A stretch of 35,160 bases of DNA from an uncultured Myxococcaceae bacterium (GTDB taxonomy: Bacteria > Myxococcota > Myxococcia > Myxococcales > UBA5297). The stretch's first letter is position 1. Every line of letters starts with the position of its first letter. The DNA is taken from positions 1 through 35,160 of the forward strand of contig CAZAIE010000001.1 in assembly GCA_964485035.1 (NCBI GenBank), given 5' to 3'. The position numbers were made by a program, and so were the translations under genes. This document shows positions 1 to 29,502 of the stretch, piece by piece. A model generated the notes under the pieces. The model did not search any database. It saw only the letters and a program-made list of their open reading frames with translations, and had not been told where the DNA came from.

Positions 1-3000
1 GCTCTTGCCCACCGTGCCCTCTGGGAGAAACTGGGTCGCAAGGCGCACCCGGTCCGGCGCCACGACAGCGAGCGTCAGTGGCTGGGCGGCGGTCTTGCCT
101 GCGGCGTCCTTGACCTCGACGCGGAAGGGGAACGTGCCGTCACGGCCCGGGACGCCTTCCAGCGTGCCGTCCTGGCCGAGCGCGAGCCCAGAGGGCAGCA
201 CTGCCCCAGGCGCGAGCGACCAGGCGTACGGGGGCTTTCCGCCCACGGCCGCCAGCTTCGCAACATAGGGCTTGGAGTACTCGGCCGCCGGGAGGTCCTG
301 GGTCACGACAGTCAGCGGCACTGCAGAGGCGGTCACCTCGAGTGTCAACCGTGCGGTCGCGACCTTCCCTCCCGAGGCGACCTGTACGTCGAACGCGGCT
401 CCGCTCGCCGGAACAGTGGGCAGACCAGCGATGTCGCCAGCGGCCGACAGGGCGAGCCCGGCCGGGAGCTTGGTGCCGTTGGAGAGAGAGAAGGCGTAGC
501 GGCCGTCGCCGCCGCTCGCGTGCACCCGCACCGAGTAGGCCGACTGCACCTGCGCCGCAGGGAGGGTCTTGGTGACGATCGCGAGGCTGTCGGAAACCAC
601 CTTGAACGGCGCCTCCATCACCCCGGTGTTGTTGACCATCAGGATCTCGGGGAGCTTCTGCTCCGGATCGACGATGACTCCCAGGTAGTACTCGCCCGGA
701 AGCAGGTCGGCCGGGAGCACCAGGTTGTCGACCGTGGACTTCTCACCGAAAGCGGGGATGCCCTCGGCCTGCTCGACCGTCCCAGGTGCTGGCGTGAGCA
801 GGCGGTCCGAGCGGGTGACGACCGCGTTCTCGGAGAGGTAGACCGAGTAGGCGATTTTCCGGATGGTGCAGCTACCCGCGACGCAGCCCTCTCCCGCCGG
901 GCAGGTGTCGTCCGTGGTGCAGGCAGCGGTCTCGCAGGTGCCAGAGGTTCCGCAGGACTGGCCCGCAGGACAATTGGCCGGAGCAGTGCAGGACTTGCGG
1001 CAGCGGCCGGTATCGCAGGTCCACCCGGTGCCGCAGTCGGCCGGGACGCCACAGGGCCCCGACCACCCGCTCCCGACGTTCTTGATGACGTGCGTCACGA
1101 CGAGCGAACCCCCGGCGGCGAGGCTGGCCTTGTCGGTGGTGACGCTGCCCACCACGAGGTCGGGCGTCGGCCCGCCAAGGGTGACCTTCCGTCCGCCTGC
1201 CGGCGCCGTGTTGTTGGCCTCGTTGTCCTCCGAAGCCTTGTTGTCCGGGTCCACGAAGGCGAAGAGGTAGAAGGGGCTGGTCGTCAGGTTGCTCGGAAGC
1301 GTGGGCGTCAGGAGCACGTCGCGGCGCTGCTGGACGGCCACGTCGATGGCTTGGGAGTTGCCCAAGACCAGGTCCTTGGCCGGGTCCAGCGCCGCATCGG
1401 TCGAGAGGAAGAAGCGGACGGTGACGCCCTTGACGTCCTCGCCACCCTGGTTGAAGACCGTGGCGCCGATGCGCAGCGGCACCCCGGCATACCCCACGTC
1501 GTCGGAGTACACGCGGGTCAGGGTCAGGTCTGCGGACTGGGTGAAGTGGATCTGCGTGTTCGGCTGGTAGTCGGCGACGGCGCAGGCGGCGGTCGTCCCG
1601 CAGGGCAAGCCCGCGAGACCGAAGACTCCACCCGGGCCCTGGATGCCCACCGCCGCCTTCGGCGCCTTCGAGGCCTCCGGCGGCTGGTAGGCCGACATCG
1701 TGGAGGGTCCATAGGCGAACTCGATCTTCCCGGTGGTCTCGTGGAGCTTGGCCTGGAAGGTCACGCCATTTGCAGCCTTGCCCGCGGTGTCGGGGGCGTA
1801 CCAGACGCGGTCCCACTGGAAGGTGACTACCCGGAGCGGAGTCACGCCGCTCACCGCGTACGAGACCTGGCCCGGGAGGCAGTCCCACTCACCCCACCAA
1901 GGCGCCACGATGGGGAACGCGCCGCCGGGCGCGGAGCTGGGGATGCCCGCGCTCGTCTTGAGGTTGCCGATCGCGCAGCCAGTAGATTGCTGCGCTGTGC
2001 AGGTCGGACCGAACCCGAGGTAGCCACGGCAGCCCACCTGCACGCTGGTGTGCGACTCGCCGTAGAACCGGAAGGCGAACGGGAGCGCCACGACCTGCTG
2101 CGGCCCGTTGGATTGGGTCAGGTCCATGCTGATCTCGCTGCCGCCGACCAGCGGCGAGAAGGGCGCGCTGATCACCGGGGAGAGCTGGTAGGCGGCGTGG
2201 GCGGGCGCGGCGCCGAGGAGGGTCGCGAGCACGGCCACCAGCCCCAGCCCCTTGCGACGGCGCAGGAGGAGCGGCAGCAGCGCGAGCCCGAGGAGCGGGA
2301 AGAGCCCCACCCCTGCGGCCGAGCAGCCAGTGGTCTCTGTCGGGACCGCAGGGGGAATGGCCTTGGGCGCGATACGGATGGTGAGCGGAACCAGGGCCTG
2401 GGCCCCGGCCTCCTCGATGAGGAGCAGCACCGAGTCATAGCTCCGGGGAGCTGCGTCTTCAGGGACCGTCCCGGCGATGCGGCCTTCCGCGCTCAGGCTC
2501 AGCCCCGGAGGCAACTCTCCGCCATAGACCTCGAACTTCGTCCGCGGGCGCGCGCCCAGCGAGAGGTTGAGCGAATACTCGGCCCCCAAAGTCGCCTCCG
2601 GCACTGCCGGCATGGTGAAGGTGGCCGGGCGCGACCGCACGCTCAGGATGAAGGCGCCGGTGTCGGTGAAACCCGCCGCGTCGGTCACCTCCGCGATGAT
2701 TGGGTAGAACCCGGCGCGAGTCGGCGTTCCGAGCAGCGAGTCGCCCTGCAGCCGCAGCCCCTCGGGGATCGACTCGGCGGGGATGGTCCACGTGTACGGT
2801 GCCGTCCCGTACTGCGACTGCAGCTGCTGCCGGTAGGCGATGCCCACCTTCGCGTCCTCGAGCTTCACGGTCGAGACGAAGAGCGTGCCCGGCATCACCG
2901 CCCGCATCGACAACTCGCCGACGACACGGCTTCCGAAGGCGTCCTGGACGGCCACCTTGAAGGTGACGTTCCCGTAGCTCCGCGTGAGCTTGCCGCTGAG

Positions 3001-5715
3001 CTTGCCGTCATGCCCGAGAGTCAGACCGTCGGGGACGCTCCCATCCTCCAGCAGCCACACGTACGGCCGCACGCCGCCGACCGCGGAGAGCTTGACCGAG
3101 TAGTCCAGCCCCACCACTGCGGTGGGGAGCTTCGCCGAGAGGAGCGCCAGCGGGCTGCTGGGCAACACGGCCCGCATCGCCAGGCGCGCGAGGGCGCTGC
3201 GACCACCCGAGGCGACCTTGACCGTGAACACCGAGACCGCGGCCTCGGTGGGCTGGCCCTTCAGCTCGCCCGACGCGCTCAGGGTCATGCCCTTGGGCAG
3301 GTCGCCCTGCCCCGCTTCCACGGTCCACACGTAGGTGCCGTCGCCGCCGGAGGCGACGAGTTGCTGGAGGTAGTCCACGCCGACCAGCGCGTCCGGAAGC
3401 GACGAACTCTCCACGCGCAGGGAGCTGGCCACGACCTCGACCGTTCCCAAGGAGCCCAGTGCGTTGTTCGTCTTGTCCAACTCGGGGAAAGCGTTCTCCG
3501 GGTCGAGCACCAGCCCGACGAAGTAGGTGCCCGGAGAGATGCCCTGGGGAATGAGCACGAGGTCGGTCGCGCGGTCCACGCCGCCCGGCGCGAGGTGCCC
3601 CTCGCCTGCCGCCTTCTCCTTGCCCTCGCCGTCGAGCAGCGCCAGCGGGAGGTCCTCCGAGGAGATGATCTCGTTGGAGGACAGGTAGTAGCGGTAGAGG
3701 AACGGCGCGGCCTCCGGCGAGTCGTTCCCGCGGTTCCCCAGGTTGCGCATCACCCGATAGACCGGGAGCACCTCGCCCACCGCAGCCACCGCGGGCGCCT
3801 GGACCTGGACCGGGGTGAGGTCCATCGCCGGCTGGCGCGTGCCGATGCCCTTGGGCGCCACCGACTTGTTGTTGGTCTTGTTGCTCTCGGGGACGGTGTT
3901 GCGGCAGTCGATGATGACGCCGATGTAGTAGGTCCCATCCGTGAGCGCCTTGCCCGCCGTGTTCTGGGTGGGGATGGTCGCCTCGACCTCGATGTTCTTC
4001 GTCTCCTTGCCCACGTAGGTTTGGTTCAGGAGCAGCGGCTCGTTCGGGGTCATGTCGATGTCGAAGAGCGAGACCATCGGGGTGTCGGAGAGGAGCACGC
4101 AGATGTAGAAGTTCTTCGCCGTCCCGCCGCCTGCATTCATCGCAGTGAACGAAACCCGCACCTTCTCGCCGAAGTAGCCCGTGGTCGTCTCCGGGTAGGG
4201 AGCGGTGATGGACTTCACCTTCACTTCCTTCACCAGGATGTCCGCCGCGGAGATGGTGACCGTCCCGCTCGCCACCGCCGTGTTGTTGGTCTCGCTGAGT
4301 TCCAGGACGTCACCCGTGGGCTTGCCTGTCACGACCGGATCGACGACCAGGATGTAGTAGTACTTCCCGTCCGCCAGGGTGAACGGCAGCTTCGCCGGCG
4401 GGGTCAACTCCAGGGTCTCGCCGCCGCCGATGGCAGGGACGGTGCCGGTGTAGAAGAGCTTGTCGGACGCCGGGACGATCGTCGTACCGGTGGTGAGCCA
4501 GAGTTGGTAGCTGAACTGGACTCCCGACGGGTCGGTTCCGCGGTTGCGGATGGTGACCTGCAGGTTCGCGTCGTCGCCCGGCCCAGCGTTCCCGGGACCA
4601 GAGATGAGCCCCTCCAGGTCCACGCCGATGAGGTACCCCATGCTCACACCAGTATTGTTGGTCTCCAGCGCCTCCTTCACCTCGTTCGTGGGGTCGAGGT
4701 TCACGCCGAGGTAGAAGGTGCCCGCCGCCGGCTTCTCGAACTCCAGCCCGGTCTCGACGTAGTTCCCCTCGGTCAGACCAGCGAGCGTCTCCGGCGCCGT
4801 GTGCGACCGCAGCAACGTGCACTTGGTGGGGTCGTTGAGGACCACCGAGGCCTGCTTGCAGAGGTAGAGGTCGAAGGCGAAGCCCACCGCCGGGTTCTGG
4901 CCCTGGTTCCTCACCCGGACCGTCACGTCGAGGGAGTAGCCCGGGTTGCCGTTGACGGTCGTCGAGGTCAGCGTCGAGCCGATCACGGCGCTCACCAGCA
5001 GGTCGGGGTCCACTGCGGGAGCCACGGAGATCATCTTGCCGGCCGGCCAATCGGCGTTCAGGCACCGGGCCGTGGTGTTGGTGCAGGGCAGGAAGGTCAG
5101 TCCCGCCGTCCCAGTAGCGTCCTCCATTCCCGCTCCGGCCTTGCCCGTGCCCGAGGTCGTGGAGATCGCGCCGTAGTACATGACGATGGCGTTGGTCCCC
5201 TCCTGGAAGTCCACCTGCAGGGTGCGCAGGCCGCCCGAGGAGTAGTGCTCCCAGTCCGACCACTTCACCGAGTAGATGCGGTTGGGGGCCGTGCCCACGG
5301 TCGTCACGTCGACCTTCGCCGTAGTGGACTTCATGTCCGCCATCCAGGGCGCAAGCAGGCCATTCGGCACGGCCGGGTCGGGGAAGTTCTTGGTGTTGTA
5401 GCAATCGCCGACCAAGCCGCCCGTGCACTTCTTCGGGGACCCCGGCTCGAAGATGAAGATGCCGTCCATGGTCACATCGGCCGTGGTGTAGCTCTTCCCG
5501 TAGTAGACGAACGGGAACGGGAAGGTCAGCGTCGCGATTCCGTAGTCCGTTTGCGGCGAACCCGAGGTTCCGAGCAGGGCCACCGAGGACCAGCCGGAGT
5601 AGGGGGGCGCCAGCGCCGGGGTGGGCTGGCTCACCACGTAGACTGCCTGAGCGTGGGCGGCCCCCGGCGCGGCCAGGGCCGCCAGCACGAGGGAGAACGC
5701 GAGCCGCTTCATCAT
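1..5715 (-). CDS. Giant secreted surface/adhesin-like repeat protein, partial. The N-terminus is in the window and the ORF runs off the left edge (at least 1905 codons).
   Basis: The ORF track omits it because there is no stop codon in the window. Manual reverse-complement translation from ATGATG at 5715/5712 gives MMKRLAFSLVLAALAAPGAAHA/QAVYVVSQPTPALAPPYSGW...LTFPFPFVYYGKSYTTADVTMDG. That is a Sec signal followed by an N-domain I read as NIDO-like, on the LPFxFxFYG motif alone. GGAG lies 7 nt upstream of the ATG. No complete ORF is listed in this minus frame anywhere between 1 and 5715, whereas the other frames are fragmented; this fits one uninterrupted frame. I spot-checked translation at 5520-5715, 3300-3360, 2160-2400, 840-1080 and 1-60. 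Repeated CARDB-like modules (...NxG......V.FYLS.D..L...D..L......DP.N.V.E..E.NN) and He_PIG/Ig-like modules (LP.A.VG..Y...L.A.GG..PY.W....G.LP.GL.L...G.L.G.P) are present. Positions 1-60 still encode ...LATQFLPEGTVGKS, the start of another Ig-like repeat. Confidence 0.85.
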   Translation of the reverse strand, partial: MMKRLAFSLVLAALAAPGAAHAQAVYVVSQPTPALAPPYSGWSSVALLGTSGSPQTDYGIATLTFPFPFVYYGKSYTTADVTMDGIFIFEPGSPKKCTGGLVGDCYNTKNFPDPAVPNGLLAPWMADMKSTTAKVDVTTVGTAPNRIYSVKWSDWEHYSSGGLRTLQVDFQEGTNAIVMYYGAISTTSGTGKAGAGMEDATGTAGLTFLPCTNTTARCLNADWPAGKMISVAPAVDPDLLVSAVIGSTLTSTTVNGNPGYSLDVTVRVRNQGQNPAVGFAFDLYLCKQASVVLNDPTKCTLLRSHTAPETLAGLTEGNYVETGLEFEKPAAGTFYLGVNLDPTNEVKEALETNNTGVSMGYLIGVDLEGLISGPGNAGPGDDANLQVTIRNRGTDPSGVQFSYQLWLTTGTTIVPASDKLFYTGTVPAIGGGETLELTPPAKLPFTLADGKYYYILVVDPVVTGKPTGDVLELSETNNTAVASGTVTISAADILVKEVKVKSITAPYPETTTGYFGEKVRVSFTAMNAGGGTAKNFYICVLLSDTPMVSLFDIDMTPNEPLLLNQTYVGKETKNIEVEATIPTQNTAGKALTDGTYYIGVIIDCRNTVPESNKTNNKSVAPKGIGTRQPAMDLTPVQVQAPAVAAVGEVLPVYRVMRNLGNRGNDSPEAAPFLYRYYLSSNEIISSEDLPLALLDGEGKEKAAGEGHLAPGGVDRATDLVLIPQGISPGTYFVGLVLDPENAFPELDKTNNALGSLGTVEVVASSLRVESSSLPDALVGVDYLQQLVASGGDGTYVWTVEAGQGDLPKGMTLSASGELKGQPTEAAVSVFTVKVASGGRSALARLAMRAVLPSSPLALLSAKLPTAVVGLDYSVKLSAVGGVRPYVWLLEDGSVPDGLTLGHDGKLSGKLTRSYGNVTFKVAVQDAFGSRVVGELSMRAVMPGTLFVSTVKLEDAKVGIAYRQQLQSQYGTAPYTWTIPAESIPEGLRLQGDSLLGTPTRAGFYPIIAEVTDAAGFTDTGAFILSVRSRPATFTMPAVPEATLGAEYSLNLSLGARPRTKFEVYGGELPPGLSLSAEGRIAGTVPEDAAPRSYDSVLLLIEEAGAQALVPLTIRIAPKAIPPAVPTETTGCSAAGVGLFPLLGLALLPLLLRRRKGLGLVAVLATLLGAAPAHAAYQLSPVISAPFSPLVGGSEISMDLTQSNGPQQVVALPFAFRFYGESHTSVQVGCRGYLGFGPTCTAQQSTGCAIGNLKTSAGIPSSAPGGAFPIVAPWWGEWDCLPGQVSYAVSGVTPLRVVTFQWDRVWYAPDTAGKAANGVTFQAKLHETTGKIEFAYGPSTMSAYQPPEASKAPKAAVGIQGPGGVFGLAGLPCGTTAACAVADYQPNTQIHFTQSADLTLTRVYSDDVGYAGVPLRIGATVFNQGGEDVKGVTVRFFLSTDAALDPAKDLVLGNSQAIDVAVQQRRDVLLTPTLPSNLTTSPFYLFAFVDPDNKASEDNEANNTAPAGGRKVTLGGPTPDLVVGSVTTDKASLAAGGSLVVTHVIKNVGSGWSGPCGVPADCGTGWTCDTGRCRKSCTAPANCPAGQSCGTSGTCETAACTTDDTCPAGEGCVAGSCTIRKIAYSVYLSENAVVTRSDRLLTPAPGTVEQAEGIPAFGEKSTVDNLVLPADLLPGEYYLGVIVDPEQKLPEILMVNNTGVMEAPFKVVSDSLAIVTKTLPAAQVQSAYSVRVHASGGDGRYAFSLSNGTKLPAGLALSAAGDIAGLPTVPASGAAFDVQVASGGKVATARLTLEVTASAVPLTVVTQDLPAAEYSKPYVAKLAAVGGKPPYAWSLAPGAVLPSGLALGQDGTLEGVPGRDGTFPFRVEVKDAAGKTAAQPLTLAVVAPDRVRLATQFLPEGTVGKS
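2194..2328 (-). other. Internal MYXO-CTERM-like segment fused in frame to a signal-peptide-like segment inside the giant ORF
   Basis: Verified reverse-complement translation of 2161-2400: ...PKAIPPAVPTETTGCSAAGVGLFPLLGLALLPLLLRRRKGLGLVAVLATLLGAAPAHAAYQLSPVISAP... GC + hydrophobic stretch + RRRK has the shape of a myxobacterial C-terminal sorting tail. It is followed, with no stop codon, by a hydrophobic stretch ending AHA/AY and a second copy of the NIDO-like N-domain (ALPFAFRFYGESHTSVQVGCRGYLGFG). In-frame GTG codons lie at 2238 and 2232. Confidence 0.7.
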
Positions 5716-5789
5716 CGTCCTGCTCCATGCGCCGGGACTCGGCGCTCAAGCACTACGTCGGAAAGCAATGCCGGGGTCCACGCACCGGA

Positions 5790-5814
5790 GCGGGACGGCC
5801 CTCCGCCGTCCCGC
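5790..5814 (-). terminator. Stem-loop between the vWA lipoprotein gene and the giant ORF (possible attenuator or weak terminator)
   Basis: gcgggacgg (5790-5798) pairs with ccgtcccgc (5806-5814): a 9-bp perfect GC-rich stem with a 7-nt loop, 16 nt downstream of the upstream gene's stop. There is no U-tract. Confidence 0.3.
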
Positions 5815-5829
5815 TGCCGCCGCGGAAGG

Positions 5830-8800
5830 CTACTGCAGGCAGGCCACGTGGTAGCTGACGGCGATGGTCGAGCCGGGCTCGGGCACCGAGAGCGCATCGA
5901 AGTCGATGGCCGTCGCCGCCGAGTTGAACGACCAACGCGTGTCGTCGTAGGGCCCCTTCTCCGGGTACGGCACGCCGTCCACGGTGATGGTGATCTGCCC
6001 GTTGGCGGTGTCCGGCACGTTGGAGAGGAAGAACCGGGTGCGGTAGCCGAACGCCGTCTGCCCCAGCTTCTCCAGCGTGGTGGCCCAGTTCGGCGTGCAG
6101 ATCTCGTCGGAGACGCCGGCGCTCGCCTGCACCACCTGGCTGACGCGCAGGTTCTGGTGGGCGTCGGACTCGTCGTACGAGCACGAGCCCACCGGGCCGG
6201 TCTTCGGGACGATGCCGTTGAAGGTGAACATGTTCTGCCGCTTGAAGCCCTTAATTGTGAAGAAGGCGTTCAGGTAGAACGAGGTCGGGACGTCGTCCTG
6301 GTCGGCGGCGTCGGAGACCACCACGATGGCCAGATTGGCTTCGTCGCGCAGAAAGTTCTTGCTGCAGCTCGTCAGGTTGGGGTTGGTCAGGGCCAGGTAG
6401 GCCGGACGGATGAGCAACTCGAGGTAGTTGCCGCTGGTGCCCACCTTCACGTTCTGCTTGAAGACCGTCTCCGCGTTCGGGGTCTCGAGGGTGATGACGT
6501 CGTCGTTTCCCGGGGCCTTGAAGAAGCAGCCATTCAGGTCGTCGCCGCTGTCGGTCAACCCGCCGTGGGCCTCGTCCACGCCCGTGGTGGTGACGGCGAT
6601 GTGGTAGTCGACCTGCTGCGCCGCGGCGAACTTGATGAACGAGTCGAAGTTGTTGCCGAGGTTGGTCTGCTTGTCGGACATCGACCCCGAGCTGTCGATG
6701 ACGAAGAGCACGTCGACCTTGGGCTGCGGGTCCTGCGCGAAGATGTCCTCCTGGATCGCGGTGGTGTCGCCGCGGCCAGAGATCGGAATGACCGTGGGCT
6801 GGACCATCTGCGAGGTCTTGAGGGCGATGCTGCCCTGGTCGTCCCCCATGTCCGTCGGCGCGTACTTGGCCTTGAAGTCGGTCGAGTTGCCCGGGGCCAG
6901 GGTGTAGGGCAGGCGCGGCTTCTGGATGATGTGGAACTCCTGCGAGAGCCCCGTCTGCAGGTCGATGGACTCGATGATCTGGTCCTTGGAGCAGACGTTG
7001 TAGACGGTGAAGACGCGCTCGCGCGAGTTGCAGTTGATCTGGATGACGCCGAAGTCCAGCTCGTTGGGCGCGATGAGCAAGCACCCGGTCTGCGCGCTGC
7101 CGGCCAGCGCGACGCGCCCCTCGGGAGCGTCCTTGGACGAGATGTAGAACTCCACCGCGCCGGAGTAGGTGCGTGCGAGCTTCGGGCTGAAGCGCACTGG
7201 AATCTCCAGGGACTTGCCGCCCTCGATCTCGTAGTCGTTGATCGGGCCCTTCACAAGCGTGAAGGCCGGGTCGGTCCCGCGTGCGAACCCTAGTGTAGAA
7301 ACCAAGCACTTGTCCGCCGGGTTGGTCGACTTGTTTCGGATGTTGAACGACAACTGCAGACTCTTGCCTGGCTCCACGTTTCCGAAGTTCACCTGCGGGG
7401 GAACAACGTCGTAGTCGCAGGGCGGCATGGTCACCCCGTTCGCCTCAAGCGGAACCACAGTCACTGGCGCGTACGGGTCGTTCGAGAAGATTTTCAGTTG
7501 CGCGAGCTTTCTCCCTGGAACCTTGGGAGCAAACTTGACCCTCAGATCGGCGTTCTGGTTGGCCTCAGTCCCCGTGCATGATCCAGGATTCACGCAGGGA
7601 GCGGCGAGCCCAGTTGGTGCGTAGCCTTCCGGCGGCCACTCAACCGAGAACTCGCTGTCCGACGGTTCGATGACAACCCGCTTTTCGAGCCAACAGAGGC
7701 CGCGAAGGCAGGTATTCCCGTTCACGCAGTCGGTGTTCTTCGTGCAAGTAATCGCCGAAGCGGAGTCTGGCTCCATCAGCTTCAGATTGTCGTCGGTGAT
7801 CCCGACAACATTGGTCCCAACATTCGCGATAGTGATACGTCGCCGCTGGAAGGTGTCCACGGCGACCGAGCCGAAGTCCAAGCGCGTTGGCTGCACCTCG
7901 ATCGCCGGGCCGCCGCCGATGCCATTGAGGAGGAAGTAGCCGGTGGGGCGCTTGGCGTCGTTGGAGGTGAACCGGAGCTTTGCTTCGTGCTTGCCCAGCA
8001 CGCTCGGCCCGAAGGACAGCTTCACCTTCGCCGACTGACGGGCCTCCACCACCAGCTCCACCTGCTCAGCGTCGTCCTTGGCGAACGCGTTGCCCTTCGA
8101 GGACTCCTGCTCGATGCCCAGCCCGCTGACGGTGATGGGGGTGTTCCCGAGGTTCTTGAAGGTGACCTCGCCCGGGGCCTTGGCCTTGCCGTCCTTGCTG
8201 GGGTTCACGTACCCGAAGTCCAGCAGGCACTCCCACTTCTCCTGGCCGGTCACGGGGTTCTTCACCAGCACCTTGGGCTCGCACTCCAGGACCTGGTCGA
8301 CTCCCTGGCCGATGAGGGGGAGCACCACCGCACACATCGCCGGCTCGCTGATGGACAGCGCGGCCTGGTGCGGCCCCACGTGGTTCGGCTTGAACTCGAT
8401 GGGGACGACGATGTCGCCGTGCTTCGGGACCAGCATCTTGCCGGGGGTGAAGTTCGTGAGGCTGAAGGTCCCCTTGTCGGACTCCGCGATGAGGCCCTCG
8501 ACGTTGACCGTCCAGTCGAGCTCGGTGATGTTCTGGATCTTCACCTGCATGGGGAACGAGGTGCCCAGCGCCACCGAGCCGAAATCCACGTTCTCGACCG
8601 GGGTGACGACGCAGCCGCCCTTCACGCCGCGCCCGCTGAGGTTGATGACCAGCTCCGTGTTCTCGGACTGGGCGAGCTTCAGGCGGACCACGCCGGTGTG
8701 AGCCCCATCGGTCTTGGGCTCGAAGTAGAACGTGAGCTCCTGCTCCTGCTGGGCCTCGAGGTTGAAGTTTGTGATCTCGTAGTTGAACGAGACCTCGTCG

Positions 8801-9075
8801 AAGCCCGGGGCCTTCTCGATGGCGGTCACCTCCAGGATGCCGATCCCCAGGTTCTTCACCACGACCTTGCGCTCGACCCGCGTATCGACGAGCTGCGGCC
8901 CCCACTCGAGGGTCGTGGTCTCGACCTCACGCTTCCCGTCGATGGCGTCGTGCTCGATGATGGCGCCGCGCCCCTGAGCAGTCACAACAGGTGGATCGCC
9001 TTCGCATCCCTCGCAGCCGACGAGCAAGAGAAGCCCCGCGATCGCGGAAATAGCCAACCACTTGTTGTGGCGCAT
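5830..9075 (-). CDS. Large lipoprotein (1081 aa) with about six ASH/choice-of-anchor-D-like Ig modules and a C-terminal von Willebrand factor A (vWA) domain
   Basis: Complete ORF. N-terminus MRHNKWLAISAIAGLLLLVGC has a lipobox (LVGC). GGGAG lies 6 nt upstream of the ATG. The module hallmark x-DFG-x-V recurs (VDFGSVALG, LLDFGYV, RLDFGSVAV, VNFGNVEPG, ELDFGVIQI). vWA MIDAS motif DVLFVIDSSGSMS at residues about 788-800 (vWA roughly nt 6198-6720), followed by ...AVTTTG... and ...VVVSDAADQDD. Amino-acid composition is natural, unlike the overlapping shadow ORFs. Confidence 0.92.
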   Translation of the reverse strand: MRHNKWLAISAIAGLLLLVGCEGCEGDPPVVTAQGRGAIIEHDAIDGKREVETTTLEWGPQLVDTRVERKVVVKNLGIGILEVTAIEKAPGFDEVSFNYEITNFNLEAQQEQELTFYFEPKTDGAHTGVVRLKLAQSENTELVINLSGRGVKGGCVVTPVENVDFGSVALGTSFPMQVKIQNITELDWTVNVEGLIAESDKGTFSLTNFTPGKMLVPKHGDIVVPIEFKPNHVGPHQAALSISEPAMCAVVLPLIGQGVDQVLECEPKVLVKNPVTGQEKWECLLDFGYVNPSKDGKAKAPGEVTFKNLGNTPITVSGLGIEQESSKGNAFAKDDAEQVELVVEARQSAKVKLSFGPSVLGKHEAKLRFTSNDAKRPTGYFLLNGIGGGPAIEVQPTRLDFGSVAVDTFQRRRITIANVGTNVVGITDDNLKLMEPDSASAITCTKNTDCVNGNTCLRGLCWLEKRVVIEPSDSEFSVEWPPEGYAPTGLAAPCVNPGSCTGTEANQNADLRVKFAPKVPGRKLAQLKIFSNDPYAPVTVVPLEANGVTMPPCDYDVVPPQVNFGNVEPGKSLQLSFNIRNKSTNPADKCLVSTLGFARGTDPAFTLVKGPINDYEIEGGKSLEIPVRFSPKLARTYSGAVEFYISSKDAPEGRVALAGSAQTGCLLIAPNELDFGVIQINCNSRERVFTVYNVCSKDQIIESIDLQTGLSQEFHIIQKPRLPYTLAPGNSTDFKAKYAPTDMGDDQGSIALKTSQMVQPTVIPISGRGDTTAIQEDIFAQDPQPKVDVLFVIDSSGSMSDKQTNLGNNFDSFIKFAAAQQVDYHIAVTTTGVDEAHGGLTDSGDDLNGCFFKAPGNDDVITLETPNAETVFKQNVKVGTSGNYLELLIRPAYLALTNPNLTSCSKNFLRDEANLAIVVVSDAADQDDVPTSFYLNAFFTIKGFKRQNMFTFNGIVPKTGPVGSCSYDESDAHQNLRVSQVVQASAGVSDEICTPNWATTLEKLGQTAFGYRTRFFLSNVPDTANGQITITVDGVPYPEKGPYDDTRWSFNSAATAIDFDALSVPEPGSTIAVSYHVACLQ

Positions 9076-9206
9076 GTGTCACTCCCTCTGACGTGGCCTC
9101 GGTCGCCCCGTTGCCGGCCGGAAGATACAAGGCGCCCATTCTGGCGTCCGGGTGGGTGAGCGTCAAGCAACGAAAAAACCCGGGGTCTTGGCTTGCCGCT
9201 GTGCGG

Positions 9207-23588: not shown

Positions 23589-24515
<927 letters not shown>

Positions 24516-24670
24516 GTGTGCCTCACTGTCGTTTTTGGACGCACATACCTACCCGACCGATGCCGGGAAGTACACGCGAGTCGTCGTGGCCCCGGAGGGG
24601 GGAAGGACCTGACGAGGAGCGCGCGACGCGCTATCCTTCCGCGCACTCACGACACCGCCGCAGGAGCCCC

Positions 24671-25633
24671 ATGTCCGCCAGCGTCGCGAATGAGTTCGAG
24701 CACCGGATGTCGCGGTACGCCCATGAATTGAAAGACTTTTTGGAGCGGCTGCCCCGGAACTTGAAGCGCGGGAAGATCGAACAGGCGAAGGAGCAGTGCC
24801 AGAAGTTGGTGGACGAGCTGCCGCACGCCAAGGAAGAGGCGTCGTGGGCGGCATCGTGGGCGAAGTTCCGGGCGGCGCTGGTCGAGCTGAACCGGTCGCT
24901 GGACGGCAAGACGGCCAAGGCCTACGTGCAGACCAAGTACGACGAGGCCGCGCGCGCCTACGAGCACTGGGTGGCGACCCGCCGGGCCGCCTCGAAGACC
25001 GGCGAGCAGAAGATGGCGAACCTGGGGGCGCTCAAGCCGCTCATCGGGGCGCGGTCGACCTTCCACATGAGCTCGGGACTGGTGTGCTTCGTCCTGTACC
25101 AGTTCCTGCTGACGCGCTGGCAGGCCGAGCTGGTGCTGCTCTCGGTGCTGGGCGTCTTCGGCGCGCTGGAGCTGACCCGGCGGTTCTCGGGGAGGTGGAA
25201 CAAGTTCCTGACCGACCGCGTGTTCCACTCCATCGCGCGCCCGCGCGAGTTCTACAAGGTGAACTCCTCGACGCTGTACGTCGCGGCGCTGGCGCTGCTG
25301 ACCCCGGTGTTCAGTCGCGAGGCGGTGCTCTGCGGCGTGCTGATCCTGGCGTTCGGAGATCCCGCGGCCGCGTGGATCGGCCGGCGCTGGGGCCGGGTGA
25401 AGCTGTACCAATCCAAGAGCGTGGTCGGCTCACTGGCGTTCGTGGTGACGGGCACGCTGGTGACCACGGCGTTCCTGGCGATCTTCTACTCGCACCTGTC
25501 CCTGGAGCAGCGCCTGCTGGCGTCGGTCATGGCGTCGGTCGCCGGCTCGGCGGCAGAGGTCTTCAGCCACCGGCTGGATGACAACCTGACCATCCCCATC
25601 GCATCGGTGCTGGTCGCGGCGCTGTTTCTCTGA
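24671..25633 (+). CDS. Membrane protein of the CTP-dependent polyprenol/phytol/dolichol kinase (cytidylyltransferase-like) family with an N-terminal soluble helical domain
   Basis: ATG at 24671 is preceded by AGGAG (4-5 nt). About 110 aa of charged helical N-terminus are followed by TM helices and LAFGDPAAAWIGRRWGRVKLYQSKSVVGSLAFVV...AEVFSHRLDDNLTIP. Confidence 0.7.
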   Translation: MSASVANEFEHRMSRYAHELKDFLERLPRNLKRGKIEQAKEQCQKLVDELPHAKEEASWAASWAKFRAALVELNRSLDGKTAKAYVQTKYDEAARAYEHWVATRRAASKTGEQKMANLGALKPLIGARSTFHMSSGLVCFVLYQFLLTRWQAELVLLSVLGVFGALELTRRFSGRWNKFLTDRVFHSIARPREFYKVNSSTLYVAALALLTPVFSREAVLCGVLILAFGDPAAAWIGRRWGRVKLYQSKSVVGSLAFVVTGTLVTTAFLAIFYSHLSLEQRLLASVMASVAGSAAEVFSHRLDDNLTIPIASVLVAALFL

Positions 25634-25699
25634 GTCGAAGCGAGAGACGAAAGTCGGACGCGCGGGACGCCCGCCGCCACAGTGCTCCATTCGTGCTCG

Positions 25700-26041
25700 C
25701 TACGACGCCCACTTGCCGCACTTGACGCAGTTTTCCTTCTTCGACCCGAAGCCGCAGTCGCTGCAGACGAACGCGGGCTTGCCCTGCGAGCCCACCCACT
25801 TGCCGCAGCGCACGCAGTTGTCCTGCTTGGAGCCGAACCCGCAATCCCCGCACGTCCGCGCCGGGATCTTCGTGGAGCCCATCCACTTCCCACACTTGGC
25901 GCAGTTGTCCTTCTTCGAGCCGAAGCTGCAGTCGCCGCAGAGCTGCGCCTTGTAGTGCGCCGCATAGGTCTTCCCCGCGATCGAGAGCGCCGCGGGCACG
26001 AAGATCATGCTGGTGAGGAACTGCCGACGGGTGGTTGCCAT
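25700..26041 (-). CDS. Small Tat-signal protein (113 aa) with three tandem CxxC-x9-CxxC mini-zinc-ribbon/rubredoxin-knuckle repeats
   Basis: Very strong RBS (GAGGAGGGAAGGcaATG). MATTRRQFLTSMIFVPAALSIAGKTYA carries a twin-arginine motif (TRRQFL). The repeats are LCGDCSFGSKKDNCAKCGKW / TCGDCGFGSKQDNCVRCGKW / VCSDCGFGSKKENCVKCGKW with a 29-aa period: 12 Cys in a mature peptide of about 86 aa. Confidence 0.85.
   Translation of the reverse strand: MATTRRQFLTSMIFVPAALSIAGKTYAAHYKAQLCGDCSFGSKKDNCAKCGKWMGSTKIPARTCGDCGFGSKQDNCVRCGKWVGSQGKPAFVCSDCGFGSKKENCVKCGKWAS
25709..25939 (-). repeat. Three imperfect 87-bp tandem repeats encoding the Cys-rich modules
   Basis: The periodicity shows in both DNA and protein (CG[DS]C.FGSK..NC..CGKW x3). 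Confidence 0.75.
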
Positions 26042-26077
26042 TGCCTTCCCTCCTCTTGCGCCCCGGTTCGGGCGGGC

Positions 26078-27364
26078 TCAACGCAGGCGCAGCAGCCCCT
26101 TGGGGGACAGCCCGCTGGTCTTGCCCCAAGGTTCCGGCGCATTCCCGGATTCGGGAGCAATCGACGAGGTGTCGACCCGCTCGATGGTCGAGGAGTTGTC
26201 GCGCACCCCCAGCACCACCCCCTGCCGCAGCTCCTCCATCCAGTCGTAGGGACCCGCGACCGCCAGGCGCCCTGCCCCGCCCGCGTGCTGGTGCCACGTC
26301 CGCGCCGCCACCGCGAAGCCGCTGCTGAACACCGCCAGCATCCCCGTGGGGGTCCCAGTCTTGTCCACGTGCTTCAGCGAGAAGATGAAGCCCCCGGCCG
26401 AGAGCGGCGCCGCCGAGTAGGCTCCCTGGACGGTGCAGGCCTCCGAGTCCGCGTCCCGGTACTGCGCCGACGCCTTGTCCGAGCCGTCCGACGACGAGGG
26501 CGACAGGCGCAGGTACGAGGAATCCGCCGTCGCTCCTGCCACCACCATGCCCTCGAGCGGCGCGAGGCCCGCATACCCCGGCGCGATCCGGTCGGTCGTG
26601 ACGTCCGTCAGCCGCCACAGCTCGGCGTCCGCCTGCCCGCGCCCGGTGGTCACGAAGAGCGTGGTCCCCAGGGCGGCCATGGCGCGGATGACCTTGCTCC
26701 CGAGCGCCGTCGCGAGCTCCGGGTAGTCGCGCAGCCGGTTCCCCTTCAGGTCGTAGACCGCGACCGCCGCGTTGGCGCCGTCGAGCCCGCCCACCGCCAC
26801 GCCATCGCTCATCCGCGCGAGGGCCCGCGGGCTCTTCATCCCCGCGAGCGTGAGCGAGCCCGCCTGCTCCCCCCCGCTGTCGAAGACCACCACCCGGCTC
26901 GAGGTCGCCTGGTCGACGACCCACAGGTTGCCCGCCCACCGCGTCTCCAGCTGCCGCACGGTGCACGCGTCCGGGTCGTCCAGGTACGAGAGCGTGACGA
27001 AGTGCGTGACGGTGGTGTCGCGGAAGTCCACCGGGAGGGGCTTGTCCCTCAAGAGCTGGATGCGCACCTGCCCGGTCGTCGCGTCCTGCTTCACCCCGAA
27101 GGAGAGGTCCACCGAGGACCGCAGCGGCTTGAAGGCCACCTCGCGGCCGCCGCTGGGGAGGCTGCACTCGAACTCGGCGATCTCCTTGACCAGGTTCTGC
27201 GGCACCGCCCCGGTGACCGGCGCGCAGCTGAACTCGGGCCCGGGCCGCTTGCAGACCGGGGCGACCACCGCCGCGTCGGACGGGTAGCCGCCGTCCGCGC
27301 CGTAGATGTCCTGCGGGCAGCCGGTGAGGAGCGCGAGGAGGGGGAACGCCGCCAGTCGAAGCAT
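26078..27364 (-). CDS. Lipoprotein, beta-propeller-like, function unknown (428 aa)
   Basis: Internal ATG at 27364: MLRLAAFPLLALLTGC (lipobox). Repeated strand-rich segments (WVVDQATSSRVVVFD, AVAVYDLKGN, TLFVTTGRG...). It starts 5 nt after the stop of the upstream lipoprotein gene. Confidence 0.75.
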   Translation of the reverse strand: MLRLAAFPLLALLTGCPQDIYGADGGYPSDAAVVAPVCKRPGPEFSCAPVTGAVPQNLVKEIAEFECSLPSGGREVAFKPLRSSVDLSFGVKQDATTGQVRIQLLRDKPLPVDFRDTTVTHFVTLSYLDDPDACTVRQLETRWAGNLWVVDQATSSRVVVFDSGGEQAGSLTLAGMKSPRALARMSDGVAVGGLDGANAAVAVYDLKGNRLRDYPELATALGSKVIRAMAALGTTLFVTTGRGQADAELWRLTDVTTDRIAPGYAGLAPLEGMVVAGATADSSYLRLSPSSSDGSDKASAQYRDADSEACTVQGAYSAAPLSAGGFIFSLKHVDKTGTPTGMLAVFSSGFAVAARTWHQHAGGAGRLAVAGPYDWMEELRQGVVLGVRDNSSTIERVDTSSIAPESGNAPEPWGKTSGLSPKGLLRLR

Positions 27365-27369
27365 CTTGG

Positions 27370-28746
27370 CTAGAGACCCGGGGTGGTCAGGCGGACCAGC
27401 CCCGCGCCCACCGGCATGTAGTGACCCTGCGGCCCCACGTCCCAAGGCGGGGTGATCTCCTTGAGCGTCGTCATGTCGAAGCGCCGCACCAGGATGTTGC
27501 CCACCGTGTTGCCGTACGCGCCCAGCGCCAGGTACTCGGCGCCGTGCACCGCGAGCGCGGTCATCTCCGGGTAGGAGCTCTTCCCCTCGCCGACCTGCTC
27601 CACGCCCAACGTGGGGTTGAGCAGGTAGAGGGGATCGCCGTTGGTGCTGTCGCCGTTGATGCCACAGAGCAGCCGCGCGTCGGGAAGGCCCAGCAGCGCC
27701 GAGTAGTTGGCGAAGCCGTTGTTCTCCGCAAGCACGCAGCCGCTGCTCACGTAGGTCTTCTCGTCGAAGAGGCAGATGCTGCGCCGCTCGCTGGAGGACA
27801 CGGCCATCTTCCCGTCGGTGCGCCGGGCGATGCTGGTGAACACCCAGGGGTTGTTGGTCTCGGGGCTGGGAACGAACTGCCGCAGCTCACCCGTCCCCGG
27901 GTTGAACACCGCGATGCCCCACACCTTGTTCTCGCGCGCGCCGGTGACCCACAATTCGCCCAGCGACGAGACCGCCATCTGCCGCGGACCGACACTCCCG
28001 AACGTCCCCGTGTCGTCCCAGATGGGCACGTAGCCCTTCCATCTATCGGTGGCCTCGAACGAAGCGGGGGCCTGCTCCACGCCCTGCCGGTTGAAGACCT
28101 TGATCGCCTTGGTGGACATCGACGAGACGGCGATGTCCCCAGACGGCAGCATTCGCAGGTCCGAGACGCCCTTGATGCCCGTCTGCCCGACCACATTGCG
28201 CAGGTACGCGCCGTCGGAGAGGTGGACGAAGATGCCAACCCCGCCCGTGGAGGTCCCGTCGCCGATCCAGTAGTTGCCCAGGACCGTGACCGTCGCCGTG
28301 CCCTCGCCGTACTCGCTGGCCTTCGCCGCGTTGCGCACGCGCACGTTGATGGTCACGACCGTGTCCGGGAAGTTCGTGGGGTGCACGTAGCCGGGCTTGC
28401 CGGTCGAGAGCGAGAAGAGCACCTGCCCCACCTGCGAGCCGTTCGCGAGTTCGATGCCAGCGGAGGGACTCGCCGTCAGCTCGGGCATGCTCAGCGACTT
28501 GCCGCCCGAGTCGATGTTGCAGTTGATGCGCACCTGGGTGTTCACCGGGACCGCGGCCGGAACCGGGTCACAGGTCACCACGATGCCGCTCGAGCCGCCG
28601 CCGCCGTCGCGCCGCGTGCCGCCGTCGCCTTCCTCGATGGGCTTGTTGGGATCGCCGGTGTCGGGACCGTCGGCGGTCCCGCCGCAGTTGCAGCCCACGA
28701 AGGTGGTGACGAGAATGGCCAGCCCAAGGAGTCGAACAGTCATCAT
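27370..28746 (-). CDS. Lipoprotein with an N-terminal Ig-like domain and an NHL/YncE-like beta-propeller, function unknown (458 aa)
   Basis: Internal ATGATG at 28746/28743: MMTVRLLGLAILVTTFVGC (lipobox), a G/D-rich linker, an Ig-like segment (VVTCDPVPAAVPVNTQVRINC...TATVTVLG), then propeller-like blades (DIAVSSMSTKAIKVFNRQG, ELWVTGARENKVWGIAVFNPGTG, KMAVSSSERRSICLFD). The 141 upstream residues in the track ORF are junk. Confidence 0.78.
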   Translation of the reverse strand: MMTVRLLGLAILVTTFVGCNCGGTADGPDTGDPNKPIEEGDGGTRRDGGGGSSGIVVTCDPVPAAVPVNTQVRINCNIDSGGKSLSMPELTASPSAGIELANGSQVGQVLFSLSTGKPGYVHPTNFPDTVVTINVRVRNAAKASEYGEGTATVTVLGNYWIGDGTSTGGVGIFVHLSDGAYLRNVVGQTGIKGVSDLRMLPSGDIAVSSMSTKAIKVFNRQGVEQAPASFEATDRWKGYVPIWDDTGTFGSVGPRQMAVSSLGELWVTGARENKVWGIAVFNPGTGELRQFVPSPETNNPWVFTSIARRTDGKMAVSSSERRSICLFDEKTYVSSGCVLAENNGFANYSALLGLPDARLLCGINGDSTNGDPLYLLNPTLGVEQVGEGKSSYPEMTALAVHGAEYLALGAYGNTVGNILVRRFDMTTLKEITPPWDVGPQGHYMPVGAGLVRLTTPGL

Positions 28747-29353
28747 GGCCTCGCGAGTATATCCCCGCCCCGCAACGGTCCCGGAACTCATCCTTGCTTC
28801 CACTTCGAAGTTCCGCCAAGCGCTTCTTGCTGGGGCCCGGCTGCCCTTCCGGGCCGTCTCCCCAGACGTGGACGAGTCCGCGCCGGCAGGAACTCCCCCG
28901 CGGACGCTGGCGCGCAGGCTCGCGCTGGAGAAGGCCCAGGCGGTCGCCGCACGGTTCCCCGAGGCGCTGGTGATCGGCTCGGACCAGACGCCCGACGTGG
29001 GAGGACGGCTGCTGCGCAAGCCCACCACGCGCGCCGAGGCGAAGCGCCAGCTCACGGCGCTCTCGGGACGAGACCACTTCCTCCACACTGCCGTCGCGCT
29101 GGTCCGCCTCGAGCCCCGGGTGCGGCTGGTGCAGGTCGAGTCGGTGCGCATCACCTTCCGCAAGCTCACCAGCCGGGAGATCGAGCGTTACCTGGACACC
29201 GAGGAGTGGCAGGGCTGCGCCGGTGGCTACCGGGTCGAGGGCGCGGGCATCCAGCTCATGCGCGCCATGCGCGGCGACTACCACGCCATCGTCGGGCTGC
29301 CCATGCTCCGGCTCGTGGGCATGCTGGAGTCGGTCGGGTACCCGCTGCTGTAG
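28745..29353 (+). CDS. maf: Maf-like nucleoside triphosphate pyrophosphatase (YceF/YhdE family)
   Basis: MASRVYPRPATVPELILASTSKFRQALLAGARLPFRAVSPDVDES...VIGSDQT...RKPTTRAEAKRQLTALSGR...FRKLTSREIERYLDTEEWQGCAGGYRVEGAGIQLM. ATG at 28745 is the only start upstream of the conserved LILAS motif. Confidence 0.82.
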   Translation: MASRVYPRPATVPELILASTSKFRQALLAGARLPFRAVSPDVDESAPAGTPPRTLARRLALEKAQAVAARFPEALVIGSDQTPDVGGRLLRKPTTRAEAKRQLTALSGRDHFLHTAVALVRLEPRVRLVQVESVRITFRKLTSREIERYLDTEEWQGCAGGYRVEGAGIQLMRAMRGDYHAIVGLPMLRLVGMLESVGYPLL

Positions 29354-29502
29354 CGGACGTCGCATCCCGGGCGGGACGCTCGGAACCGCCAGGCTCCCAG
29401 CTTCGGCAGGTGAAGTTCACTTAGAAAGCCCGGGAGGGACGCCCGAAGCCACGGGACCCCCTTCCGGGGGATCGGACTCACTGGAACAGTCCTTCTTGGA
29501 CC

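Follow-up and report, generated by a model that had tools for sequence, protein, structure and literature searches.

A myxococcal gene cluster with two propeller lipoproteins and a small exported-type protein related to PHF5A/Rds3 in sequence and predicted fold

Three genes which follow each other closely on one strand of a bacterial genome raise the question of whether their products work together, and of what the smallest of these products is. The genes considered here, called A, B and C, are found in a stretch of 35,160 nucleotides (nt) of contig CAZAIE010000001.1 (assembly GCA_964485035.1), from an uncultured Myxococcaceae bacterium. This whole stretch will be referred to as the window. 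An original prediction, made from the sequence alone, placed the three genes on the minus strand at 28746->27370, 27364->26078 and 26041->25700, with gaps of 5 and 36 nt, and the translations agree with these limits. It proposed that they form an envelope system, with two lipoproteins and a small cysteine-repeat protein. The most valuable result of our analysis concerns what C is and how widely its family extends: judging from its sequences and predicted fold, this family is a prokaryotic branch of the PHF5A/Rds3 zinc-knot superfamily, widespread but undescribed, with more than 130 members. As for the cluster, we favour, with a probability of about 0.6, a clade-specific operon formed by a pair of propeller lipoproteins and an autonomous tri-zinc PHF5-like scaffold protein, which would be exported by twin-arginine translocation (Tat).

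The predicted mature form of C has 86 amino acids (aa), 9.1 kDa, a pI of 9.1 and 12 cysteines. Its precursor starts with the motif TTRRQFLT, followed by a hydrophobic stretch, SMIFVPAALSIAG, and by a cleavage site between TYA and A, the usual order of a Tat signal, which has the motif S/T-R-R-x-F-L-K, an h-region of moderate hydrophobicity and a cleavage site of AxA type. C is a predicted Tat substrate. The mature protein is built of three near-identical 29 aa repeats, A-x-L-C-x-D-C-G-F-G-S-K-K-D-N-C-x-K-C-G-K-W, which share the core CxxCxFGSKxxNCxxCGKW. Eleven of the twelve cysteine positions are 87–100% conserved over 102 members of the family. The exception is Cys67, which is a histidine in 39 of the 102. 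Such a swap is a classic ligand exchange, which points to metal coordination rather than to disulfides. Several residues which are not ligands, F40, G41, K43, K52, W53 and N104 among others, are 90–100% conserved over three phyla. The Tat signal and the conserved twelve-cysteine pattern bear out the original prediction of a small, probably metal-binding Tat protein with cysteine repeats; what it missed is that C is PHF5A/Rds3-like. No match was found between C and the PADLOC models of anti-phage defence.

PHF5A/Rds3 (SF3b14b; PF03660), a knotted protein with three zinc ions, belongs to the SF3b complex; it is an essential component of the spliceosome core and also a drug target. The knot is a left-handed deep trefoil, and the fold has been reported as unique in the PDB (PMC5458519). 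A 2023 survey scored PHF5A as lacking a prokaryotic homolog (PMC9887622, Table S4), and a full-text literature search did not find any description of bacterial PHF5-like proteins.

C matches the Pfam PHF5 family with 35.4 bits, the gathering cut-off being 26.7, and most of its relatives carry a precomputed PF03660 match. When a profile made from 27 relatives of C is compared with all PDB sequences, the top matches are Rds3 (E 5.9e-4) and PHF5A (E 1.3e-3), and the alignment of the C family with both proteins spans all six cysteine motifs in order. The 102-sequence alignment of the family matches human PHF5A in hhalign with E 2.6e-5 and a probability of 75%; the PHF5A query agrees with the 5syb segment. 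One segment of Rds3 gives up to 38 bits against single members of the C family.

A resemblance of this kind could be convergent. C would then consist of three tandem, independent C4 zinc ribbons, and the spacing of the CxxC motifs would have misled AlphaFold2 (AF2), Pfam and HMMER alike. C is in fact a low-complexity, cysteine-rich protein with weak matches to L37e, S27ae, DZR and other zinc ribbons, the hhalign probability is 75%, and family members with two repeats exist. We nevertheless consider convergence quite improbable, on four grounds. The first one is a shuffle control, in which the non-cysteine residues of the Rds3 and PHF5A segments were permuted while every cysteine was kept fixed. 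None of 2000 shuffles reached the real score (z 6.2 and 5.5), so there is signal in the non-cysteine residues. The other three are the results of the fold comparison and the properties of two sets of unusual family members, which are described in the next paragraphs.

The AF2 model of C, obtained from the 102 sequences, has a predicted local distance difference test score (pLDDT) of about 90 over residues 31–110. The 15 best Foldseek matches of this model in the PDB are all PHF5A/Rds3, with probability 1.0, TM scores of 0.51–0.62 and a root-mean-square deviation of 2.7 Å over 82 columns. Beyond them the next match has E > 1. All top matches thus belong to one PDB-unique fold, followed by a sharp drop, which speaks against convergence. 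In PHF5A/Rds3, motifs 1, 3 and 5 are helical, while 2 and 4 are knuckles (PMC5458519). In the model of C the same alternation is seen: the turns are helical at Cys35-38, 64-67 and 93-96, but not at Cys47-50, 76-79 and 105-108. Taking together the curated hidden Markov model (HMM), the cysteine architecture and the predicted fold, C can be assigned to the PHF5 superfamily.

The CXXC motifs of PHF5A/Rds3 pair 1+4 and 2+5, while motif 3 pairs with two single terminal cysteines (PMC5458519; ligand lists in PMC7614390). C itself does not have this split site: its sixth CxxC is intact (C105, C108) and there is no N-terminal cysteine. A few relatives do have it. Three of them (P0057, P0061 and P0118) start with R-C-G-R-W and end with N-C-x-x-(I/M/L), so that the last knuckle is divided between both ends of the protein. 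From their sequences they are natural circular permutants, which reproduce the layout of zinc site 3 in PHF5A/Rds3. In such proteins both termini have to come together at a single metal site, as happens in a closed triangular fold and in PHF5A, which is difficult to reconcile with independent zinc ribbons. Five members from Bacteroidia (P0058, P0063, P0072, P0087 and P0091) carry a whole extra knuckle at the N-terminus. The forms with two repeats are eight, with 85–89 aa (P0102, P0108, P0110, P0114, P0115, P0117, P0119 and P0120). They are rare: each form is known from one or a few sequences, whose contigs do not exceed about 4 kb, and is near-identical to a sibling with three repeats, which also argues against convergence. 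They may be repeat collapses in assembly or recent deletions.

C and PHF5A/Rds3 have in common a core of about 85 residues, 12 conserved cysteines, the same order and alternation of CxxC motifs and a basic character. The differences are also clear. PHF5A/Rds3 is nuclear, while the C family is prokaryotic and has Tat or Sec export signals. C has three obvious, near-identical 29 aa repeats and six intact CxxC motifs, unlike PHF5A, which has five plus two single cysteines. PHF5A has a "stem", formed at its N- and C-termini, and a basic helix at the C-terminus, neither of which is present in C, and the SF3b partners of PHF5A do not exist in bacteria. Being coded by a bacterial chromosome and preceded by a Tat signal, C is not a nuclear SF3b subunit; it may nevertheless share ancestry and fold with PHF5A.

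A word-indexed search gave 137 relatives of C. A scan of one genome per species gave 106 C loci, 80 of which were fetched, all from uncultured genomes. According to their labels, about 32 of these 80 loci are of Myxococcota type, 33 correspond to Planctomycetota (many of them to Thermoguttaceae), 13 to Bacteroidota, one to Lentisphaerae and one to Candidatus Helarchaeota. Tat motifs are restricted to the Myxococcota-type half of the family (50 of 102 members); among the others, signals of Sec type prevail, and a few members lack an obvious signal. Viral relatives of C were searched for, and none were found.

The Helarchaeota copy (L054:7004-7267, plus strand) is found in a 1.48-Mb contig, JAHPZH010000001.1. 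It has 87 aa, no signal and three repeats, with the variant GWGSKKDNC. Its PF03660 score is 29.5 bits, and that of the L087 copy is 29.6 bits, both above the threshold. Its neighbours are TFB (PF00382 and PF08271), CdhC and RNase PH, which indicates that the locus is truly archaeal. This copy may represent a cytoplasmic form from Asgard archaea, which would be of interest for the origin of PHF5A, or it may have been acquired from bacteria.

More than 130 prokaryotic proteins with the cysteine architecture and the predicted fold of PHF5A would make its origin a testable matter, instead of an "invention". The C family retains the three-fold repeat, some of its members are natural circular permutants, and at least one comes from an Asgard archaeon. 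A more ambitious reading would see in it the missing prokaryotic relative of PHF5A/Rds3, a protein which has been classed as a proto-eukaryotic invention. The family would keep the ancestral plan, a zinc module of 29 aa, triplicated and closed into the triangular knot; its permutants would show how the split site originated, a copy with no signal is present in Asgard, and in this operon C would dock on propeller lipoproteins as PHF5A does on SF3B3. We regard this reading as tentative and rather doubtful. If the fold is as predicted, the C family would be the first exported example, by Tat or Sec, of a knotted zinc fold. This would raise the questions of how a deeply knotted metalloprotein passes through Tat and of how the fold forms after Sec export.

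The possible metal of C should also be considered. MncA and Csp1 are Tat-exported metalloproteins which acquire their metal in the cytoplasm. C resembles them in that a twin-arginine signal precedes a small protein with abundant metal ligands, and they provide a rationale for both folding and metallation ahead of export. On the other hand, C is not related to either of them in sequence or fold: its architecture is that of zinc knuckles, not that of a cupin or a four-helix bundle. Csp1, a cysteine-rich copper storage protein, and MncA, which is loaded with metal in a Tat-dependent way, are also precedents for a different explanation, in which C would be a periplasmic metal handler (a buffer, store or chaperone for zinc or copper) or would carry electrons as a triple rubredoxin-like Fe(Cys)4 protein, with A and B as functionally unrelated neighbours. 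Twelve cysteines in 86 residues together with a Tat signal are typical of proteins which bear cofactors, and both halves of each site are CxxCG knuckles of the rubredoxin type. There is also a weak match to the NCBIfam rubrerythrin-like domain NF033497, and the Tat-type members keep X-His-Tyr at the predicted mature N-terminus, a possible additional Cu(II) site. Nevertheless, the NF033497 match (20.7 bits) is below the cut-off of 32, which leaves C outside the rubredoxin and rubrerythrin families. The strong conservation of residues which are not ligands points to a fixed fold with a binding surface and not to a metal sponge; the change of cysteine to histidine is common in structural zinc sites and unusual for rubredoxin iron, and about half of the family has Sec-type signals. 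A role as metal handler or electron carrier is therefore improbable in our opinion.

The other two genes code for lipoproteins, as judged from their sequences: both A and B are predicted to be acylated, as substrates of Lgt and LspA. The lipoboxes are TFVGC in A and LLTGC in B, whose N-terminus is MLRLAAFPLLALLTG followed by C. The sequence L-T-G-C of B agrees with the pattern [LVI][ASTVI][GAS]C; in A (F-V-G-C) the F at position -3 is atypical, and homologs have LLAC, LALC or FAGC. The lipobox cysteine is conserved among the homologs of both proteins, as expected from the lipoboxes FVGC and LTGC of the original prediction. The residue at position +2, N or P, suggests that A and B are probably located at the outer membrane.

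The AF2 model of A (mb0675ca59f75) has a mean pLDDT of 82 and a predicted TM score (pTM) of 0.79. It shows a disordered tether (residues 1–52) and a propeller with 24 strands in 6 blades. The structures found by Foldseek are generic propellers, namely the filamin-NHL part of Lin41, a superoxide dismutase (SOD)-propeller from D. radiodurans, the surface lipoprotein BtuG, YncE and nidogen, with 11–15% identity, and the profile of A matches bacterial WD40 chains and TRIM2 NHL chains. The profile of B matches the Pizza6 designed propellers, which are derived from PknD (E 1.4e-9, up to 6 stretches), and also the PknD sensor domain (E 4.5e-5). The repeated four-stranded blades of NHL/WD40-type propellers, which close a ring of six or seven, are thus found in A by its model and in B by its profile, in agreement with the propeller-like repeats which had been proposed for both. 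A and B are paralogs, from their sequence comparison: BLASTP gives E 2e-8 across the Ig-like domain, and hhalign gives a probability of 96.8% and E 3e-10, with an alignment which covers A 6-276 and B 1-284. The Ig-like domain had been assigned to only one of them. In fact both have it, and by its paralogy with A, B would likewise consist of a flexible tether, an Ig-like domain and a six-bladed propeller.

Proteins with a similar organization are known. An Ig-like domain followed by a six-bladed propeller, seen in A and by paralogy in B, is found in Ig/filamin-NHL proteins (Lin41/TRIM71), the profile of B matches propellers derived from the PknD sensor domain, and BtuG resembles A and B in that these are predicted to be lipid-anchored propellers. 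The identity of A with these proteins is only 11–15%, and A has no Pfam NHL or WD40 match. No match to Pfam (including the NHL and WD40 models), NCBIfam or PADLOC was found for A or B, nor for their single sequences in the PDB. No catalytic family appears among their matches, in line with the lack of a catalytic motif mentioned in the original prediction, and neither a TonB-dependent transporter nor a kinase or RING/B-box partner was identified beside the cluster. Relatives are very few: about 9 for A and 3–5 for B. The word-indexed search gave 6 for A and 3 for B, and an exhaustive search with the A profile in 1.8 billion representatives gave just 9 with E < 1e-30. The weaker matches to this profile were rejected as relatives of A, since they are generic WD40 proteins with several propellers. 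Within the Ig + propeller lipoproteins, A and B are new members with few relatives. The link to C gives a concrete hypothesis for these rare, uncharacterized envelope proteins.

Gene A is found in the window and in the contigs L001/L006, L005/L086, L084, L085 and L090, with a divergent maf directly upstream in all of them. B follows A wherever the contig is long enough (L085 ends just past A), and C follows B, with small gaps, in four of the five lineages which can be evaluated. The order maf (minus strand), A, B, C is kept in L001/L006, L005/L086 and L084, with 47–50% identity in A and 30–37% in B. A and B share 4 nt in L084, where C starts 25 nt after B; in L086 the two intergenic distances are 55 and 20 nt. 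The downstream flank varies: a convergent membrane protein in the window, Lon in L001 and L086. A and B behave as an obligate pair, and C is an autonomous gene, which usually but not always accompanies them in one clade.

The situation is very different when it is examined from the side of C. Genes similar to A or B are found, by tblastn and HMM, in only three of the 81 species-level C loci: the window, L005 and L006. The other 78 have no A/B-like neighbour, even a diverged one, in an HMM search of all open reading frames (ORFs) of these loci. When all ORFs from the 81 loci are clustered against each other, only C, together with its out-of-frame shadow ORFs, reappears in different phyla. The following cluster, formed by ABC ATPases whose positions vary, was dismissed as chance. 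The neighbours of C are different in each lineage. For example, some Thermoguttaceae, as in L035:4193-4932 and L050:4482-5311, have a cupin-like ORF of about 124 aa which shares 4 nt (ATGA) with the start of C. In several Planctomycetota (L057, L059, L064, L065, L068, L075, L079, L081 and L083) a membrane protein of about 280–320 aa, similar to CPBP/CAAX proteases, begins 40–230 nt past C. Two Myxococcales have an ORF of about 430 aa upstream of C, and in many C loci the flanking genes are divergent or convergent. Among the loci from species-representative genomes, the closest C is that of L004, with 79% identity and neither A nor B. A lipoprotein of 1066 aa is coded 89 nt upstream of this C (L004:3696-6896, plus strand); it has about 20 cysteine-rich repeats (CDxCDATHFGxxC...TCxHGxC...) and a globular C-terminal domain. 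We should also note that this protein occupies the position held by A/B in the window.

These data allow us to weigh the proposal of a single obligate machine of the envelope, made up of A, B and C, in which two outer-envelope propeller scaffolds would hold or use the small metal-binding C. The tight spacing in the window and in L084 agrees with it, as does the order maf, A, B, C, kept in four of five evaluable lineages in spite of the divergence of A and B and of the different flanks. By analogy, one may also recall that PHF5A is a scaffold which touches a beta-propeller protein, SF3B3 (PMC5458519). Nevertheless, 78 of the 81 C loci do without A and B, the other neighbours of C differ between lineages, and one locus has A and B without C, which makes such a machine unlikely. 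The expectation that the three genes co-occur in related genomes holds within the A/B clade, except for that locus; the three-gene envelope system survives as a block conserved in a narrow clade, and not as a general property of C.

In the explanation which we prefer, a clade-specific operon with an autonomous C, the three genes would be transcribed divergently from maf in an uncultured lineage of Myxococcota. Each repeat of C would supply one helical CxxC and one knuckle CxxC, and the six motifs, paired 1+4, 2+5 and 3+6 in the manner of PHF5A, would coordinate three Zn(II), which would lock the protein into a compact triangular fold. The C of Myxococcota would fold and gain its metal in the cytoplasm, cross the membrane in folded form via Tat and be cleaved after TYA. 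The product would be a rigid, basic periplasmic protein of 9 kDa, a scaffold or a ligand-binding module. A and B, placed upstream of C in this clade, would be at most clade-specific docking partners.

Several observations weigh against this explanation. AF2 was trained on PHF5A structures and may force their fold on a similar cysteine pattern. The scores against PHF5A are modest: 19–38 bits, and the hhalign probability already mentioned. The eight members with two repeats, if real, do not fit the 1+4/2+5/3+6 pairing. We infer the identity of the metal, the knot and the Tat export of C from sequences and models. The only new locus found by scanning metagenomes with the A profile, L090:4187-8200 (contig UOOR01000779, from a fermentation metagenome), contains maf (minus strand), A and B, followed by about 550 nt which look non-coding and show no trace of C, in the place which C takes in L001 and L086, and by Lon. 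Finally, a scan of positions 25400-29400 for consensus promoters found no sigma-70-like site, so that a single A-B-C transcript is something which we infer from spacing alone.

As for the layout of the locus, A, B and C are translated without interruption into 458, 428 and 113 aa. Their G+C content at third codon positions (0.93, 0.96 and 0.95, respectively), in a window with about 70% GC, is that expected of genuine genes. The junction between A and B is TAG-CCAAG-ATG. From their spacing, the three genes probably form one operon. The ATG of A (28746..28744) and that of maf (28745..28747) share 2 nt, in the sequence CATCATG. The overlap of both starts, which had been noticed in the original prediction, can be read in the sequence and is also present in the gene calls of L001 and L086. 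If these starts are right, the promoter of A has to be inside maf. The lone AT-rich hexamer nearby is TATACT (28761-28756, minus strand), which ends 9 nt before the ATG of A; its position suggests a near-leaderless A-B-C mRNA which would begin inside maf. The coordinates of all these features are shown in Table 1.

Table 1. Features of the A-B-C locus, in positions of the window
Feature	Position	Strand	Basis
Gene C, 113-aa Tat-signal precursor of PHF5A/Rds3-like protein	25700..26041	-	Translation, Pfam, profiles, AF2
Predicted twin-arginine signal peptide of C (MATTRRQFLTSMIFVPAALSIAGKTYA, cleaved before A)	25961..26041	-	RR motif in 50/102 family members, those of Myxococcota type
C repeat 1, residues 32-60, Cys35/38/47/50	25862..25948	-	
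C repeat 2, residues 61-89, Cys64/67/76/79	25775..25861	-	
C repeat 3, residues 90-113, Cys93/96/105/108	25703..25774	-	
Gene A, lipoprotein of 458 aa: signal and lipobox Cys20, tether, Ig-like domain, six-bladed beta-propeller	27370..28746	-	Translation, AF2, Foldseek, profiles
Signal peptide and lipobox of A (MMTVRLLGLAILVTTFVG, followed by C)	28687..28746	-	Cys and following N-C conserved in 6 homologs
Ig-like beta-sandwich of A, residues ~55-155	28282..28584	-	DSSP of AF2 model; homologous to B ~43-145
Six-bladed beta-propeller of A, residues ~158-455	27382..28275	-	AF2, Foldseek, profile matches
Gene B, lipoprotein of 428 aa (LLTG followed by C16), paralog of A, NHL/PknD-type blades	26078..27364	-	Translation, hhalign, profiles
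Shine-Dalgarno AGGAGG of C	26049..26054	-	Read from sequence; AGGAGGG in the B-C gap, 7 nt upstream of the C start codon
Terminator-like hairpin downstream of C, where the operon probably ends	25655..25673	-	27 nt past the stop of C; consensus match only
Divergent maf	28745..29353	+	Pfam Maf, E 2.6e-52; partner of the block in all relatives

A few other genes of the window may be mentioned. Maf is a family of nucleotide pyrophosphatases which act on modified nucleotides. The cluster lies between maf and a gene similar to pseudouridine-5'-phosphate glycosidases (23589-24515, minus strand; Indigoidine_A, E 1.6e-110). There are thus two housekeeping genes for modified nucleotides within 5 kb, and a link between them and A-B-C is not evident. 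A convergent ORF of 371 aa (24518-25633, plus strand) ends 66 nt from the stop of C. The C-terminal half of its product is hydrophobic and multi-pass, it has no Pfam match, and the ORF has its own terminator-like hairpin at 25605-25624. At the other end, positions 1-9078 (minus strand) code for two very large proteins of secreted type with Ig-like repeats, one with more than 1900 aa (He_PIG/CARDB) and the other with 1082 aa (ASH/HYDIN-like). Such proteins are typical of Myxococcota and are unrelated to A-B-C.

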